From: a virus
Lineage: Duplodnaviria; Caudoviricetes
IMG/VR virus record: IMGVR_UViG_3300005080_000001
Coordinates: 68,519-132,518 of that record
Reading direction: 5' to 3' (one strand)
DNA length: 64,000 nucleotides
The notes beneath the pieces were generated by a model. The model worked only from the letters and a program-made list of their open reading frames with translations. It was not told where the DNA came from and did not search any database. Position numbers and translations under genes: made by a program. Below, piece by piece: positions 28,957 to 37,568 of this stretch (the stretch's first letter is position 1; every line of letters starts with the position of its first letter).

Positions 28957-29439
28957 ATGGCTAAATATCAAAAAAATGACAAAATCAAATTTGCAAAGGA
29001 TACAAGTGTTCCATTAAGTCCATTTCATTCAATGACTATTCGTAAAGGTAAAGAGTTTGAGGTTATCGGTGTATCAGCTGTTGATTACAAAATCATGAAC
29101 ACTAACAGTTCTACTATGATACTACCTCGTTCTATCGTTGAAGAATCAACTATTTCAATTCGCCCTGCAGAAGTTAGCAACAAGCGATACTCAAAGGTCA
29201 TCGAAACTGGTTTAACTTATGGCAAAGCTGTAGACAAGGCGATCCATGAAGGTAAGAAAGCTACTCGTGCGATTTGGGATGGATACTGGTGTATGCAAAC
29301 TATTGTAGGATTACAAAACGAAGATCTTCCTCAGTGGAATGGTGAATTTCTAGTAGCAGTATTAAAGAATGGTGGATATGCAATTGCAACTCCATATCAA
29401 GAAGATATGCATGCTACTGACTGGATGATAGTAGAATAG
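28957..29439 (+). CDS. DUF2829 / Tad2-like domain fused to an N-terminal domain
   Basis: LTYGKAV...EGKKATRAIW...TPYQEDMHATDWMIVE. Confidence 0.75.
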   Translation: MAKYQKNDKIKFAKDTSVPLSPFHSMTIRKGKEFEVIGVSAVDYKIMNTNSSTMILPRSIVEESTISIRPAEVSNKRYSKVIETGLTYGKAVDKAIHEGKKATRAIWDGYWCMQTIVGLQNEDLPQWNGEFLVAVLKNGGYAIATPYQEDMHATDWMIVE

Positions 29440-30019: not shown

Positions 30020-30592
30020 TTGAAAGATAAGTTTATAATACAATATGATGAGTTACCAGTTAGCGTAAACAACTATTTAAAGCCTGCTTCAAGGATTGTT
30101 GCAGGAAGACCTCTTGCATACTTATACGAGACAACAGAGGCAAAGGACTTTAAGAAACGGTTCGGTGCATACCTCAAACGAGAAGTTAAGAAGCAGGAAT
30201 GGGACAAGTCAATTACATCAGAAGGTCACTGGATTTTAGAGTGTATCTTTGTGCAAGCAAGAACGAATCAAGACAACAATAACTACTATAAGATACTATG
30301 CGACACTTTAACGGGGATCGTAATAGAAGACGATAAGAACATACTGGTTCAGACAAAAATGGTCATGTATGATGCTAAAAACCCTAGATTCATAGCAATC
30401 TTAAAGAAAGCACCGTACATAGGAATATTTAAAGACGATGCTAAATATAACGAATTCATTGAGCATAACTGTTTAAATTGCAAGAAGAACCAAGAGAAGT
30501 GTTCGATATTAAAGAAAGCAAGAGAAGGTAGAATACAAGAGGAAGTAGAATTAAATAGTAACCCAATAGTATGTCAGAAGAAGAAACCATAA
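30020..30592 (+). CDS. RusA-like Holliday junction resolvase
   Basis: PVSVNNY, DNNNYYKILCDTL, IEDDK. Confidence 0.72.
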   Translation: MKDKFIIQYDELPVSVNNYLKPASRIVAGRPLAYLYETTEAKDFKKRFGAYLKREVKKQEWDKSITSEGHWILECIFVQARTNQDNNNYYKILCDTLTGIVIEDDKNILVQTKMVMYDAKNPRFIAILKKAPYIGIFKDDAKYNEFIEHNCLNCKKNQEKCSILKKAREGRIQEEVELNSNPIVCQKKKP

Positions 30593-32297: not shown

Positions 32298-33206
32298 ATG
32301 TCATTATTTTCATCAGCAATTTTTAAGGGAGTTCTAGCAGGGGGAGTAGTTACATTAGGAGGTTTGGGATTACTATTTAATGGTACTGGCACTCTTCAAC
32401 ATGCTACAGATACGGCTAAAGATTTCTCTCATCGTTTAGTACAGTTCTCAGACAATGAGCATAAATTAATTAGCAAAATCGACACTTTAAAAGTTGATGC
32501 TAACGGCAAAATCACAACTGCTAACGGTGTAATTGTAGATCAAAAGCAAGCTATCACTGACTTAGTAGCTAAAAAAGCTGAATTAGAAGCATCTATCGAT
32601 AAACTTAATGAGCAGGTTACAGGTCTACAATCTGACTTAGAAAACTCTAAAAAAGAGTTAGCTTCAACTAAGGAAGCATTGGCTGAAGCTAATAAACAAA
32701 TAGAAAACAACAACAAAGAGTTAGAAAAAGTAAACAAAGAACTTGAAGCAACTAAACAATCATTAGAAGAAACTAAGACAGCACTCGCTCAAAAATCAGA
32801 AGATTACGACAACAAAGTTGCTGAATTAGAAAAAGCTAAACAAGAACAAGAAGCAATCAAGAAAGACCTTGAAGCAAGTCAGAAGGAACTTGAAGCTACT
32901 AAGAACAAACTAGAAGCAACTGTAGCAGAACTTGATAAAAAGACTGAAGACTACAACAAAAAAGTAGCAGAACTAAACAAAGCTAACGACAAAATCAAAT
33001 CTCTAAATGCGATCATTGCTGAAGCAACTGTAAAAGCAAAACAAGGCGATGCTCTTGTAAGCGAATTAGAAGGTCAAGTTAAGAAAGCAAATGCTGAAGT
33101 TGCAGAACATGGTAAAGCAGTGGAAGCTGAGAAAGAAAAAGCTAAAGATGCTCAACCATCTGACGTAGATTCAATCGACACAACTCTAGTGGACGTACAG
33201 AAGTAA
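32298..33206 (+). CDS. N-terminally membrane-anchored or exported long coiled-coil protein
   Basis: Hydrophobic N-terminus, heptad K/E/A-rich body with internal duplication. Confidence 0.75.
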   Translation: MSLFSSAIFKGVLAGGVVTLGGLGLLFNGTGTLQHATDTAKDFSHRLVQFSDNEHKLISKIDTLKVDANGKITTANGVIVDQKQAITDLVAKKAELEASIDKLNEQVTGLQSDLENSKKELASTKEALAEANKQIENNNKELEKVNKELEATKQSLEETKTALAQKSEDYDNKVAELEKAKQEQEAIKKDLEASQKELEATKNKLEATVAELDKKTEDYNKKVAELNKANDKIKSLNAIIAEATVKAKQGDALVSELEGQVKKANAEVAEHGKAVEAEKEKAKDAQPSDVDSIDTTLVDVQK

Positions 33207-33283
33207 TTGCAACTTGTGATATAATGAAGGATAGAGTGGATTTATTCCACTCTATTTCTTTATTAAGGGAGTGCGAGTTTATT

Positions 33284-33508
33284 ATGGAAGTTAAACGTAA
33301 ATTAAGAAGGGTCGGGAATGCGATGGGAGGAGTTACGCTTCCACAGGAAATGATGAAAAGTATGAACCTTACTGAAGGTGACTATGTTTACATAAGTTAT
33401 GAAAATGACACAATTGTTATAAGAAGTCAACCTAAACAGGATCAACATGAAGATGACATATTTCGGCAGAAAGTAATTTCAATAATAGATGAATATATGA
33501 AAAAGTAA
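33284..33508 (+). CDS. AbrB/MazE/SpoVT-family DNA-binding protein
   Basis: RKLRRVGNAMGGVTLPQEMMKSMNLTEGDYV. Confidence 0.85.
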   Translation: MEVKRKLRRVGNAMGGVTLPQEMMKSMNLTEGDYVYISYENDTIVIRSQPKQDQHEDDIFRQKVISIIDEYMKK

Positions 33509-33729
33509 TGAAGTCATTCAATGTGACTTCTTTTTTTTACTTTCTGTCTCAAAAACCAAGATTACTTTTTCTAATGAGATACGAGACTTAAAATGAGGTC
33601 ATTTATAAATATCCATATTATCTCATAAATATAAGTAGTCTTAACTTTATGAGATGGAAATTATTTACTTTTTACAACTACCTATAATAAAGGTTATGTA
33701 AACTAACTAAAAGTAAGTGGGTAAATAAA

Positions 33730-33870
33730 GTAAAAGCCTCCTGTATGAACAGAAAGGCTTTTTTACACTATACACTTTTTATAAGTGATTTGATTTTATG
33801 AATTTATGAAGTGTCATGTTATACCCCTACAACATGAACCTAATCAGAGCGTCCTCTGATGAATCGATTC
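33730..33870 (-). ncRNA. Candidate small RNA / mini-ORF transcript
   Basis: TTGTAC-17-TATAAT promoter (33905-33877), two hairpins, terminator 33732-33762. Confidence 0.45.
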
Positions 33871-33987
33871 CCAAACATTATATCATTTATTGAAGAAGTG
33901 TACAATCCCCTATTTATTGTATTTATTTACCAATAGACAACTTGATATCTCTTGCAATAATCAGAATAAGCATGTTACAATTGACAT

Positions 33988-34130
33988 ATAATAAAAAAGA
34001 ACTCGATGCGCTAACATCGAGTCTTCTTACAACTAGTCACAGCAGAGTGGTTAGTTACCTAATTCACTTATTTGGAATCAGAAGAAGAACCATCATCAGC
34101 TTGGGAGGCATAGTGGTTCTTTTTCTTTTC
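33988..34130 (+). ncRNA. Candidate type I antitoxin antisense RNA
   Basis: TTGCAA-18-TACAAT promoter; ACTCGATG-CGCTAA-CATCGAGT hairpin; terminator inside the opposite-strand peptide gene. Confidence 0.6.
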
Positions 34131-34211
34131 CTGTTTTTCTAGGAACTTCACGGTGAAAAATTGCGTTACACCTTTAGTAATTCCTTCGATAATCCAGTTC
34201 AAGAATTCCAT
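34068..34211 (-). CDS. 47-aa type I toxin-like peptide
   Basis: AAAGGAGGTG RBS; MEFLNWIIEGITKGVTQFFTVKFLEKQEKKKNHYASQADDGSSSDSK; convergent antisense overlap. Confidence 0.65.
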   Translation of the reverse strand: MEFLNWIIEGITKGVTQFFTVKFLEKQEKKKNHYASQADDGSSSDSK

Positions 34212-34430
34212 AGCGGACACCTCCTTTCTCTTATGCGATCATGAGAAAAGGTAGGCAATCCTTCCACCCTGCCAAAAATAGTTGTTAATTAAATTATACC
34301 ATAATATGCTAAGACGTACTATATATTCCCACATGCAATGATATGTAATTATATGGTACAATAAATATAAGTTTCGTCATTTTAGCTACATCATTTAAGG
34401 TGTCCTTTCGAGTCAAGGATGCCTCTTTTT

Positions 34431-34454
34431 ATTTTACAGAATATTCTGAATGAT
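34431..34454 (+). promoter_or_regulatory. Possible tandem overlapping CodY boxes upstream of rap
   Basis: ATTTTACAGAATATT and AATATTCTGAATGAT (3 and 4 mismatches to AATTTTCWGAAAATT), 6-bp overlap. Confidence 0.35.
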
Positions 34455-34545
34455 ATTGAAAAATCTAATCATTACCTCCCCTCTCCATCGTCATACTATA
34501 TAATAGGAAGAAACACAACATATATATATGGATGAGGAGGATACT

Positions 34546-35640
34546 ATGAACGTTCCAGTCAAAGGAAACGAGAAGATTACGCAGTTGTTAAATGAATGGT
34601 ATATTGAGATTCGTGCTAGACGAATTGATCAAGCGCACAGACTAAAAGAAGAGATTGATAATAAGATTGATAATATAGAAAAAGACCAGACTCTACTATT
34701 ATACTACTCTCTCTTAGACTTTAGATTCCAGTATATTGTAGACAATCTAGGAGTCTCTGCAAATAGCTTTGATAAAGTTGAAGAATTTGAAATTCCAACA
34801 AACAACTTTTTAACTTATTACTACCACTTCTTTAAGGCTATTCACGCTTCTGGCATTGGTAACTACATGATAGCAAAAGAACACTTTGACAAGGCTGAAT
34901 CTCTTCTTGAATTAGTCCCAGATGAGATTGAAAAAGCTGAGTTCTACTACAAATTAGGCGCTTTCCACTATGACATCTACGAATCACTCCAATCAATTAA
35001 GTATGTTGAAAAAGCAAAAGAAATCTTTGAACAACATGAAAATTATGAGCGAAATATAGGTTTCTGTGAGAACCTTCTTGGAACTGCTTGTACAAAGCTA
35101 AGAGAGTGGGCTTTGTCAGAAGAACATCTCATTAAAGCCATGGATATTTTCAGTAAGCTTGGCGAAGAAAAGTACGTCCTAATGGTTAGACATAACTTAG
35201 GATATATGTACTCTAGTCAAAACTTATCCCCATTAGCAATCAGATATTTATCAGAAGTAACTACTCACAATCCTAGACATCATAAAGCTTTATTCTTGCA
35301 GGCTAGAGAGCATTACAAATTAGATGAACTCGATATCGCAAAAGATTTAGCCGACAAAGGATACAGCATCTGTGTTGAATTAGGAAATAGCGAATACAAG
35401 CATCTGTTTGCAATCTTAAGGTCACTTATCTCAAATGTCTCTGGAGATGACTTGGAGAAGACTGCTCTTGAAGGAATATCTTACTTTGAAAGCGAATCAC
35501 TATATGAGTACATAGAAGAGAGCCAAGAATATATGGCTGTAAAGTTCTATGAAGAAGGTAACCATACTAAGTCTAGTGAGTACTTCTACCTGTCTTCAAA
35601 AACGAGACAAAAAATAAAGGAGAGGGAGTCTTTAAAATGA
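34546..35640 (+). CDS. rap: Rap family TPR response-regulator aspartate phosphatase
   Basis: LLNEWY, DQTLLLYYSLLDFR, YYYHFFK, EKAEFYY, HNLG TPRs; catalytic Gln retained. Confidence 0.93.
   Translation: MNVPVKGNEKITQLLNEWYIEIRARRIDQAHRLKEEIDNKIDNIEKDQTLLLYYSLLDFRFQYIVDNLGVSANSFDKVEEFEIPTNNFLTYYYHFFKAIHASGIGNYMIAKEHFDKAESLLELVPDEIEKAEFYYKLGAFHYDIYESLQSIKYVEKAKEIFEQHENYERNIGFCENLLGTACTKLREWALSEEHLIKAMDIFSKLGEEKYVLMVRHNLGYMYSSQNLSPLAIRYLSEVTTHNPRHHKALFLQAREHYKLDELDIAKDLADKGYSICVELGNSEYKHLFAILRSLISNVSGDDLEKTALEGISYFESESLYEYIEESQEYMAVKFYEEGNHTKSSEYFYLSSKTRQKIKERESLK
35470..35497 (+). promoter_or_regulatory. Internal sigmaH promoter for phr
   Basis: GAAGGAATA-N12-AGCGAAT inside the 3' end of rap, the usual position for phr promoters. 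Confidence 0.7.
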
Positions 35641-35771
35641 AAAAAATAGCATTGGGCTTAATGGGCATTTTAACCGCTTTGACTTTAATTACAGGCATTC
35701 AGTCTAGTAGCGATCGTGAGCCTGTCTCACCTACTATTATGATGATGGAACATGGAGATCATGGCGGTTGA
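35637..35771 (+). CDS. phr: Phr signalling pro-peptide (44 aa)
   Basis: ATGA overlap with rap; MKK + hydrophobic signal peptide; C-terminus MMMEHGDHGG. Confidence 0.9.
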   Translation: MKKIALGLMGILTALTLITGIQSSSDREPVSPTIMMMEHGDHGG

Positions 35772-35814
35772 TAACATGTTTGACTTTTAAAAAAGACTAA
35801 TTTAAAATGGAATA

Positions 35815-36000
35815 GAATCCATTGGGTCACCTTCTTTCTTTCAGAGAAAGGAAGATACAACCTGCTGAAGAGATGCGCTAACATCTCTTTGGTAAACCGC
35901 CTTTTCGCTTGCCAGCATTTGGGGCGGTATTGGTTATGTCATTTATTTTTTTACGAAACCCACCCTTTTTGCTTTAGACGGCTATCAAGGGTGGGTTTTC
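35815..36000 (+). ncRNA. Candidate antitoxin-like small RNA without an intact toxin partner
   Basis: TTGACT-17-TAAAAT promoter; AAGAGATG-CGCTAA-CATCTCTT hairpin with same loop as at 34001; terminal AAACCCACCCTT/AAGGGTGGGTTT stem. Confidence 0.55.
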
Positions 36001-36024
36001 CTATGCGTATCGTCTCGTGAATTT

Positions 36025-36522
36025 TCAGACCCTATTTTTTGAAATGTACTTTACTAGGTCGTAAAGTTGGTTTGGTGTTAAGTCAATTCCATGACGATAT
36101 GTTTCATTAATTCCTAAATCTCTTAAAATACCTGCCTCTTCAAGAACAACATATATAAGTTCTGAACATATCAAGTTCTTAGGATTATTTAAAAAGTTGT
36201 TTCCGTTTAAATGAAATATCTTTTTCAAACCATACCATATCGTCTGAATGTAATCGTACCTAGTGCCAATGTATTTTAACGATCTATTGTATACTGCTAA
36301 CCGTTGCTCATCTGTTAATCCTAAGTCAATTACTTCTACGTAATCATACTCGCTGTTATCAAAATCTCTAATAGCAACCTTTATATTTATGTTCGCTTCT
36401 ATAACTTTATCTTCACTTACTGCGATGGCACAGTGGCTAAATTTCCCATTGTTATCAAAATATCTAACAATATTTGATATAATCCCCTTACCCTGTACGA
36501 ATACGATGTCTCCACGTTTCAT
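36025..36522 (-). CDS. Permuted papain-like NlpC/P60 (YiiX/YebB-like) protein
   Basis: RGDIVF, FSHCAI, GTRYDY, LICSEL. Confidence 0.82.
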   Translation of the reverse strand: MKRGDIVFVQGKGIISNIVRYFDNNGKFSHCAIAVSEDKVIEANINIKVAIRDFDNSEYDYVEVIDLGLTDEQRLAVYNRSLKYIGTRYDYIQTIWYGLKKIFHLNGNNFLNNPKNLICSELIYVVLEEAGILRDLGINETYRHGIDLTPNQLYDLVKYISKNRV

Positions 36523-36587
36523 AGGCTATTGCCCTTTCTTATATAATTTTTATACAACAAAAGGAGGCTTATGCCCCCTTTTAATTA

Positions 36588-37568
36588 TTACTGATAGTAC
36601 TTAACGAATTCTGCAGAGATGTACTGATTTGCACCAACTGCAAAGAACCCACCTGTATATCCAAAGATTTTGAAGGTTTGGTCTTGAGTAACCTTTCCAA
36701 CAACTGGAGCGTTAACACTTGGTGACTGACGAACGTTTAATACATCTGCTGTCACCTTTACGTATCCAACGAATTCAAGGAATTGACCAGAAACCCACTG
36801 TTTTCCACCAACGTTGTACCATCCGTTTGCTTCACCAAATGTTTGGTACGGCTCGTCCTTGTGGACTTGCTTCACAATAGGATAATTAGCGCCTGCGCCA
36901 GTACGAACGTTTAATACATCTGCTGTTACCTTTGCTACTGCGATATTAAATCCTACTGGTTGTTCCATATATGGTTGATCTGGAGCGATAGGTTGAGGTT
37001 GAGAAGCACCAGTAAACCACTCTAATGTTTTAGATCCGTTTAACACGTCAAGGTCAACGTCACCAACGACTCCTGCTAGAGTTCCAGTTTCTGTAGTTTG
37101 CCATAAGTCACAAGGATATGCAGGTTTTGCACCGTAACGAGGAATCCAAACGAAATCAGCGCTAATTTGTGCTGCTCCAAAATCTTCGTATGTGTGGTGA
37201 CCTACATACAATCCTACTTTCTTAGCACCAAGTCTACGTAACTCGTCAATAAATGCTTGAGTTCCTGCTCTCATATCACCCATTGTTTGTACTTCTACGT
37301 CTGCAACCCAGAATAAAGAGTCTTTGTCACTACGATTCCAGAAGTCTCGTGCTTCTACTTTTGCATCTTCAATAGATACGAATCGGCAGAACGCATAGCT
37401 ACCAAATGGAACGCCATAGTTCTTACAACCTTGAACATATTCTTTGTATCGAGTATCAATAGTTGTAGAACCATCCTGTACTCGTAGAATAGCTAAGTCT
37501 AATTCTTTACTTGCTTGTGACCAGTTAATAGTTTCGTTGTGATGAGATAAGTCTGCGATTTTACCCAA
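36588..37568 (-). CDS. Endolysin: GH25 muramidase (PlyB-like) with two SH3b domains
   Basis: [27 protein letters not shown]; two VTADVLNVR repeats. Confidence 0.93.

Follow-up and report, generated by a model that had tools for sequence, protein, structure and literature searches.

A rap-phr island in a Bacillus cereus-group prophage is probably a patchwork of independent cassettes that includes a putative type I toxin-antitoxin module

The stretch of DNA analysed here (the window) comprises 64,000 nucleotides (nt), bases 68519-132518 of a 132.5-kb IMG/VR virus record (IMGVR_UViG_3300005080_000001), and carries a 2.3-kb island in which rap-phr, a predicted quorum-sensing operon, is flanked by two short hairpin-bearing RNAs, the left one overlapping a small open reading frame (ORF) that may encode a toxin. 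Genes lie on the plus strand up to the end of phr (35771) and on the minus strand from 36025 onwards (tail and lysis genes), and the island lies where these two arms of the 132.5-kb B. cereus-group prophage converge. A host in the B. cereus group is indicated because the nearest relatives of Rap are encoded on three other viral contigs (120-127 kb) and in Bacillus gaemokensis. The principal features, with positions counted from the first base of the window, are as follows.

33952..33981, plus strand: promoter of the putative antitoxin RNA, with TTGCAA, an 18-nt spacer and TACAAT with an upstream TG; both hexamers are kept in the related locus L014.
33988..34130, plus strand: putative antitoxin small RNA (sRNA) of about 140 nt, with stem-loop 1 (SL1, 34001-34022), stem-loop 2 (SL2, 34031-34056), a linker and a terminator (34080-34126) with a run of T residues.
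34211-34071 (part of 34068..34211), minus strand: putative toxin ORF of 47 amino acids (aa), starting MEFLNW, with a GGAGG ribosome-binding site (RBS) 8 nt upstream of the ATG.
33990..34288, minus strand: predicted toxin mRNA, with an extended -10 element TGgTATAAT at about 34303-34295 and a terminator at 34023-34000 with a run of T residues.
34528..35640, plus strand: rap, encoding a receptor of the response-regulator aspartate phosphatase family, with a likely start at 34546 after GAGGAGG.
35637..35771, plus strand: phr, encoding a 44-aa pro-peptide with a hydrophobic, signal-like N-terminus and the C-terminus HGDHGG; its start overlaps the rap stop.
35775..36006, plus strand: RNA2, the right-hand RNA, a toxin-less mosaic of toxin-antitoxin (TA) fragments.

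An earlier note on this DNA had listed rap-phr, a small toxin-like ORF and four promoter-to-terminator patterns, all of which are present in the sequence, each of the four units having a -10 or a -35/-10 pattern followed by a hairpin and a T-run. Terminator-like sites are about four-fold enriched in 33000-36800 (8, against 1.8 +/- 1.6 in shuffled sequence), with promoter-like sites not enriched (19, against 14.5 +/- 3.2), and three of the four units fold better than their shuffles (z = -3.6 to -4.4), the unit at 34368-34435 being the one that does not (z = -1.3). The GATG-CGCTAA-CATC hairpin said to be common to the two flanking RNAs was recovered as the exact 14-nt GATGCGCTAACATC at 34005 and 35872, two exact copies 1867 nt apart; allowing up to 2 mismatches gave 3 matches in the window against 0.40 expected. 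Beyond GATGCGCTAACATC, the bases of the stems differ between the two copies yet remain paired in both, and the two RNAs are related through this shared SL1 hairpin. A 17-bp motif, AAACAAAAGTATTGCAA, occurs in 33 copies at up to 3 mismatches (0.75 expected) between 6796 and 63898 of the window, always on the strand of the local arm, with no copy at that threshold between 28386 and 37655; the motif scan thus bears out the reported gap at 28.4-37.6 kb, and the sequence patterns describe an island with its own promoters and terminators, free of the phage-wide motif. Across the whole 132.5-kb genome this polar motif has 25 exact copies, and its core, CAAAAGTATTGC, about 50, each on the strand of the local arm.

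Judged by its sequence, the left RNA is the putative cis-antisense antitoxin partner of the neighbouring 47-aa ORF and not of rap. The locus has the layout of a type I TA module, with a small ORF (<~60 aa) that has its own promoter, a strong RBS and an intrinsic terminator, and a convergent cis-encoded sRNA with its own promoter and terminator that is complementary to the 3' part of the mRNA. The sRNA (33988-34130; fold of -40.1 kcal/mol, z = -3.99) shows full complementarity to the final 21 codons and to the 3' untranslated region (UTR) of the toxin mRNA, an overlap of about 140 nt, and the minus-strand terminator located by scanning (34023-34000) is the SL1 hairpin read on the opposite strand. 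The predicted toxin mRNA also folds strongly (-93.1 kcal/mol, z = -4.64), and its RBS is predicted to be sequestered by pairing with an upstream CCUACCUUUU in both the minimum-free-energy and the centroid structure. The 5' end of this mRNA (AACAAC...GGCAGGGUGG) is predicted to pair, in a long-range 5'-3' helix of about 20 bp, with the complement of SL2; L014 keeps both arms, without covariation, and this predicted lock resembles those of other type I toxin mRNAs. In L014 the sRNA is about 90% identical, an in-frame 3-nt indel leaves the toxin ORF open, and ORF and sRNA are better conserved than their flanks.

The ORF list gave 34220-34068 for the toxin-like ORF, with the ATG at 34211 as the likelier start. 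The 47-aa peptide has an amphipathic N-terminal half followed by a Lys-rich segment and an Asp/Ser-rich tail; its homologues form three clusters of 46-aa proteins (85-91% identity), all annotated as 'hypothetical protein [Bacillus]'. No match to it was found in Pfam, NCBIfam or PHROG, nor by tblastn in the phage searches.

SL1 places the left RNA in a family of antitoxin RNAs in the B. cereus group. Viral contigs were scanned for the bare 14-mer, which gave mostly chance matches, and the matches were filtered by BLAST against the flanks; at least about a dozen loci among the matches listed then shared one architecture. In the exact-hairpin viral loci listed, this consists of SL1 (a conserved stem with a CGCUAA loop), SL2, an AU-rich linker and a terminator, and each RNA converges on an ORF of 46-63 aa with GGAGGTG upstream, of which SL1 is the terminator. 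A covariance model (R1) built from eight viral-contig loci, with the window excluded, matches the left RNA over its full length (33994-34062, 29.4 bits, E = 5e-6) and the right copy over SL1 only (35868-35889, 27.3 bits). R1 also has a match at the position of the left sRNA in 8 related prophages, and of 71 species genomes in the genus of B. gaemokensis 50 contain matches, as many as 8 in one genome; a convergent small ORF was found, by a filter of our own, in 24 of the 31 loci examined. Peptides of the family have an M-D/E-x-L-F start and a tail rich in Lys/Arg. Some members differ in the SL1 loop (CUCCAA, CUGGUA, CUCGAC), which is hence not invariant. For 39 distinct RNA sequences, pairing holds in 93.8% of cells and compensatory changes are seen at 11 of 20 pairs in SL1 and SL2, in an alignment that was fitted to the model and leans that way; none of 500 shuffles reaches the observed level, and slid controls lie far lower.

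The family extends well beyond phages. BLAST with one of its modules (the L067 type) returned 406 Bacillus plasmids, in which it is always annotated as 'hypothetical protein' or carries no annotation. A further member, L080 (800-1100 of a 164.7-kb viral contig), has the same 14-nt hairpin core in its terminator and a toxin that is a Hol_Tox protein (PF16935, 3e-13); in a local search its mRNA scored 34.2 bits (E = 1.5e-6) against Rfam BsrG, and there is a weak match of its antisense RNA to RatA (26.9 bits), the consensus of which has the 5' hairpin loop GCuuuAAC. These matches to Hol_Tox, BsrG and, weakly, RatA tie the family to known type I TA modules, and the shared core suggests that the 14-nt hairpin is an old feature common to Bacillales type I modules. 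No matching Pfam, NCBIfam or Rfam model was found for the B. cereus-group family, nor any description of it in the literature searched (including PMC6562991 and PMC2887945), which is not proof of absence; the family appears still to be unnamed. The left RNA of the window has SL1 and SL2 in order, a convergent small ORF and an SL1 that doubles as its terminator. The window peptide does not match the type with an M-D/E-x-L-F start and a Lys/Arg-rich tail, and the module is assigned to the family because of its RNA and its layout, the peptide not being tied to it by sequence.

RNA2, the right-hand RNA, is a fragment of the R1 family rather than a full member, with SL1 as its only stem-loop of that family. 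Its parts are as follows.

35780-35808, plus strand: promoter-like site, TTGACT-17-TAAAAT (10/12 match).
about 35852-35803, minus strand: toxin start remnant, a degraded RBS followed by MDSIPF-stop.
35868-35889, plus strand: SL1, matched by R1.
35896-35931, plus strand: terminator of an L067-type antitoxin; the minus strand encodes NTAPNAGKRKGG, the C-terminus of an L067-type toxin.
35931-35999, plus strand: 3' part and terminator of an L099-type antitoxin; the minus strand encodes KKGGFRKK.

The segment 35814-35852 corresponds to the part of L067-type toxin genes around the RBS and start, and tblastn supports the toxin remnants at E = 3.6e-8 (NTAPNAGKRKGG, L067 type) and 5e-4. RNA2 has no SL2, no minus-strand T-run after SL1 and no intact toxin ORF, and because these are missing and its pieces belong to two types, it is, on the evidence of its composition, the probable debris of at least two TA modules. 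Relative to L012-L015, in which only 40-80 nt separate phr from the peptidase gene, 35775-36006 is an insertion. Since no terminator precedes RNA2 after phr, and the only terminator region after phr lies within RNA2, rap-phr transcripts are expected to terminate within it. Of the 12 related rap-phr loci fetched, 11 lack RNA2 (L012-L015, L166-L169 and L171-L173); the twelfth, L170, has a variant in which the promoter-like site, toxin start remnant, SL1 and last terminator recur but the middle is different.

The receptor between the two RNAs belongs to the Rap family. The protein has RapH_N (4.8e-23) and TPR_12 (6.8e-11) domains, matches phrog_5208 (4e-96) and is similar over its full length to the structures of RapF/I/J/H, Rap105 and Rap3T (PDB RapF, 3e-34 over residues 14-365). 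The DQ of its conserved EDQ stretch, which has a catalytic role in RapH, aligns with RapF. It is followed by a small pro-peptide gene with predicted secretion, as expected of a Rap-Phr pair, and the C-terminal 14 residues of Phr (SPTIMMMEHGDHGG) are identical in L012 and L170. The domain search found RapH_N and TPR only, with no helix-turn-helix (HTH) domain, so that Rap should be unable to activate a downstream RNA promoter as AimR does.

Comparison of related loci shows that the three parts of the island are present and absent independently.

L012 and L013 (Rap 93-94% identical): TA module replaced by a 1-kb XRE-regulator cassette; rap-phr present; RNA2 absent.
L014 and L015 (Rap 73% identical): TA module present, about 90% identical; rap-phr present; RNA2 absent.
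L166-L169 and L171-L173 (found through the toxin): TA module present, about 300 nt from rap; rap-phr present; RNA2 absent.
L170 (found through the toxin): TA module and rap-phr present; RNA2 in variant form.
The window and contigs X3 and X7 (99% identical): TA module, rap-phr and RNA2 all present.

This distribution fits independent cassettes within one phage lineage. Homology to L012 and L013 starts at 34424, the exact end of the 34398-34424 hairpin, and because the junction falls at a hairpin end it suggests that cassettes are exchanged at terminators; the TA slot is, on these comparisons, a predicted hot spot for such exchange. Its content in L012 (1893-2830) is a 53-aa ORF, a 117-aa XRE-type HTH protein and a 97-aa protein, and in L170 and L171 an integrase gene adjoins the TA module. 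The earlier note had proposed as a check that the hairpin should be linked to rap-phr elsewhere, and this did not hold: among 44 hairpin-family loci, most of them with only 1.5-kb flanks, a single one has a Rap homologue, about 7 kb away. The Rap homologue of that locus, a viral contig (L067:10293-11393), is 40% identical to that of the window and accompanies an L067-type TA module.

We therefore favour, with a probability of roughly 70%, the reading that the island was pieced together from accessory cassettes independent of each other (rap-phr, a type I TA module and the wreck of others), with no new receptor-peptide-RNA circuit. It builds on direct observations, namely the anatomy of the locus, the membership of the sRNA in the family, the covariation of SL1 and SL2 and the independent presence and absence of the cassettes. 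Under this patchwork reading, rap-phr, like operons known from Bacillus prophages and plasmids, would be a quorum-sensing unit complete in itself, in which free Rap would block a host response regulator (of Spo0F or ComA type) until imported Phr binds its TPR domain. The minus-strand 47-aa peptide would act as a toxin and the sRNA of about 140 nt from the convergent promoter as its antitoxin, with one hairpin serving two roles, as the intrinsic terminator of the toxin mRNA and as the 5' stem-loop of the antitoxin. By analogy with txpA/RatA and bsrG/SR4, a loop-loop contact may start duplex formation, after which RNase III would degrade the toxin mRNA, the 5' UTR of which is additionally predicted to hide the RBS. 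RNA2 would be the wreck of two further modules of the same family, now serving at least as the terminator region of rap-phr.

Several observations weigh against this reading. The window peptide shows no relationship to the Lys/Arg-tailed peptides in a hidden Markov model of 28 of them (E = 0.96) or in BLASTP, which gave no alignment, and it was accordingly rejected as a protein-level member of that family. It is less hydrophobic than classical type I toxins and has an acidic, Ser-rich tail, so that its toxicity is putative. An Rfam search over 33900-34400 at E <= 10 gave no RatA, BsrG or other relevant match. In all 8 prophages found through the window toxin subtype, the TA module lies about 300 nt from rap, an adjacency that is most simply explained by shared descent, a functional tie being another possibility. 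Finally, the retention of RNA2 elements in a second, diverged lineage (L170) hints that RNA2 is perhaps not pure junk. A language-model search (Protein Atlas) returned the same three top clusters for the window and family peptides, all unnamed and with scores below 0.9 (only 0.76 for the window), which we treat as a lead only.

The alternative that survives best, although we consider it unlikely, takes RNA2 for a functional orphan antitoxin, with a promoter of its own or released by processing of the rap-phr 3' UTR, that would act in trans as a decoy for the toxin mRNAs of related modules residing on plasmids in the same cell or on competing prophages, an anti-addiction or anti-abortive-infection role comparable to that of phage pseudo-ToxI. 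RNA2 keeps a 10/12 promoter match, SL1 and two terminators, and the diverged L170, with a different middle, still has the promoter-like site, SL1 and the last terminator. It is complementary to L067-type toxin mRNAs (23 nt at 100% and 52 nt at 86.5%) and to the L099 type (75% over 134 nt), and TA modules of this sort are common in the host genus. Set against this are the missing SL2, the lost T-run of the toxin-side terminator, an order of pieces that resembles deletion scars and the absence of RNA2 from most relatives. A more specific form of the idea, to which we give slightly less credence again, is that RNA2 is a retained chimeric orphan antitoxin that would pair in trans, through SL1 and its two 3' parts, with two toxin subtypes and so confer immunity; if true, the phage or its lysogen would be immune to the addiction or abortive-infection effect of rival plasmids and prophages. 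In the same vein, paralogous type I modules, up to 8 of which share a near-invariant SL1 in one genome, could engage in cross-talk.

Comparably improbable is that the 47-aa ORF encodes an ordinary small phage or membrane peptide tuned by antisense RNA, its TA layout having been inherited from an ancestor and its toxicity lost. Neither the Lys/Arg-tailed family nor Hol_Tox shows significant protein similarity to the peptide, whose hydrophobicity is moderate and whose tail is acidic and Ser-rich, and YhzE-2, which likewise has an antisense sRNA, was not toxic when overproduced in B. subtilis (PMC2887945). The predicted RBS sequestration and 5'-3' lock are nevertheless typical of toxin mRNAs, ORF and sRNA are conserved above their flanks in L014, and the RNA is a member of the R1 family.

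Least probable by a wide measure is the earlier note's proposal of a Rap-based counterpart of aimR-aimP-aimX, a single circuit in which Rap would sense its peptide and control both hairpin RNAs and hence the toxin, lysogeny or sporulation. In its favour, the parts are packed into 2.3 kb that the 17-bp motif network leaves out, RNA2 comes straight after phr, where the lack of an intervening terminator should let rap-phr transcripts run into it, and the TA subtype adjoins rap in 8 of 8 prophages found through the toxin. Against it, Rap has no HTH domain, the hairpin marks a type I TA family that is found near rap in just 1 of 44 loci (about 7 kb away), RNA2 is built of broken toxin and antitoxin pieces and 11 of 12 related rap-phr loci lack it, the two closest rap relatives have no TA cassette, and RNA duplex predictions against the rap 5' region gave no clear signal. 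It is the cassette pattern, together with the lack of an HTH domain in Rap, that disfavours an arbitrium-like arrangement.

Two further units and one rejected ORF complete the island.

33730..33870, minus strand: U1, a small non-coding unit with an extended -10 element TGaTATAAT (33885-33877), a 5' hairpin ATCAGAGGACGCTCTGAT and a terminator (33756-33737).
34368..34434, plus strand: U3, with a -10 element TGgTACAAT (34354-34362), a hairpin (34398-34424) that lies on the cassette junction and a T-run.

U1 folds well (z = -4.35) and contains no ORF; in L012, L013 and L014 its -10 box, 5' hairpin and terminator are kept around a variable middle with a 22-nt indel, and no Rfam match to it was found. 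U3 is weak (z = -1.31, with a T-run broken in L014), and its production as a short transcript is doubtful. A 38-aa ORF at 34419-34535 (starting MPLFILQNIL) was considered as a second toxin and rejected, being truncated to 14 aa in L014 and absent as an ORF from L012. Pairing of U1, U3 and RNA2 with the toxin mRNA and with the 5' region of rap, predicted by a crude unrestricted duplex method, did not clearly exceed that of shuffles.

The surroundings of the island on either arm include the following genes.

28957-29439, plus strand: gene upstream of the island, in the stretch free of the motif, for a 160-aa protein with a Tad2-like (Thoeris anti-defence 2) domain (E = 3.7e-8).
30020-30592: RusA resolvase, after the Tad2-like gene.
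33224-33655: 94-aa AbrB/MazE-fold protein (PF04014, 3e-8), followed by nested palindromes.
From 36025, minus strand: C92/NlpC-like peptidase, GH25+SH3 endolysin, tail proteins and a 2524-aa YomI-like protein.

The nested palindromes after the AbrB/MazE-fold gene (ATCTCATAAA...TTTATGAGAT at 33620-33655, plus 33558-33581/33619-33642) are kept in L012-L014 and look like operator sites. Phage searches with 33500-36100 (megablast and blastn) gave no match, and Rfam over 30-40 kb at E <= 1 gave nothing relevant.

For the finding as first posed the outcome is deflating, an ordinary stack of Rap-Phr, a putative type I TA module and TA debris at an arm junction prone to recombination. The hairpin at its centre, however, marks a large type I TA family on plasmids and prophages of B. 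anthracis, B. cereus and B. thuringiensis, and the covariance model and peptide alignment now allow this family to be annotated, a modest but real gain. Both can also serve to ask whether the family contributes to the maintenance of plasmids or prophages, or to defence against phages.

Among known systems, arbitrium (aimR-aimP-aimX) has the same order of receptor, peptide and short non-coding unit on a temperate Bacillus phage. It differs in its receptor, which binds DNA ahead of the downstream regulator gene through an N-terminal HTH of a kind not found in the window Rap, and in the conservation of its downstream regulator along with the receptor and peptide genes, RNA2 being a TA wreck that 11 of 12 related rap-phr loci lack; as known here from sequence alone, the window also shows no sign of lysogeny control. 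A closer counterpart is Rap-phi/Phr-phi of phi3T, together with other Bacillus prophage and plasmid cassettes, which form the same two-gene operon on a large temperate phage. The window Rap is similar over its full length to the Rap3T and Rap105 structures and differs from B. subtilis phage Raps in its low identity (only 26-30%), its B. cereus-group host and a pro-peptide that ends in HGDHGG. The rap-phr operon of phi3T is likewise flanked by intrinsic terminators (PMC8027211).

SPbeta resembles the present phage in size and layout only, and membership in that group was rejected, the sole match being a distant one to YomI (24-26% identity over 15% of the 2524-aa protein). Its yonT/SR6 module is also a toxin gene with a 3'-overlapping antitoxin on a large prophage. 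YonT has a hydrophobic N-terminus followed by a long Lys/Arg tail, and the peptides of the B. cereus-group family resemble it in this, whereas the peptide of the window has no basic tail.

The nearest parallels to the left module are txpA/RatA of the skin element and bsrG/SR4 of SPbeta in B. subtilis. The window RNAs fall below every Rfam threshold, those for RatA and BsrG included, and the window peptide differs in having no Hol_Tox match, no clear transmembrane stretch and an acidic, Ser-rich tail. In both B. subtilis systems the 3' overlap is ~100 nt or more, the antitoxin has several stem-loops and the toxin RBS is sequestered (PMC6562991). Like the window module, both consist of a prophage-borne small ORF with a convergent cis-antisense sRNA, and the family member L080, with its Hol_Tox toxin, its BsrG match, its weak RatA match and the same SL1, stands between them and the module described here.

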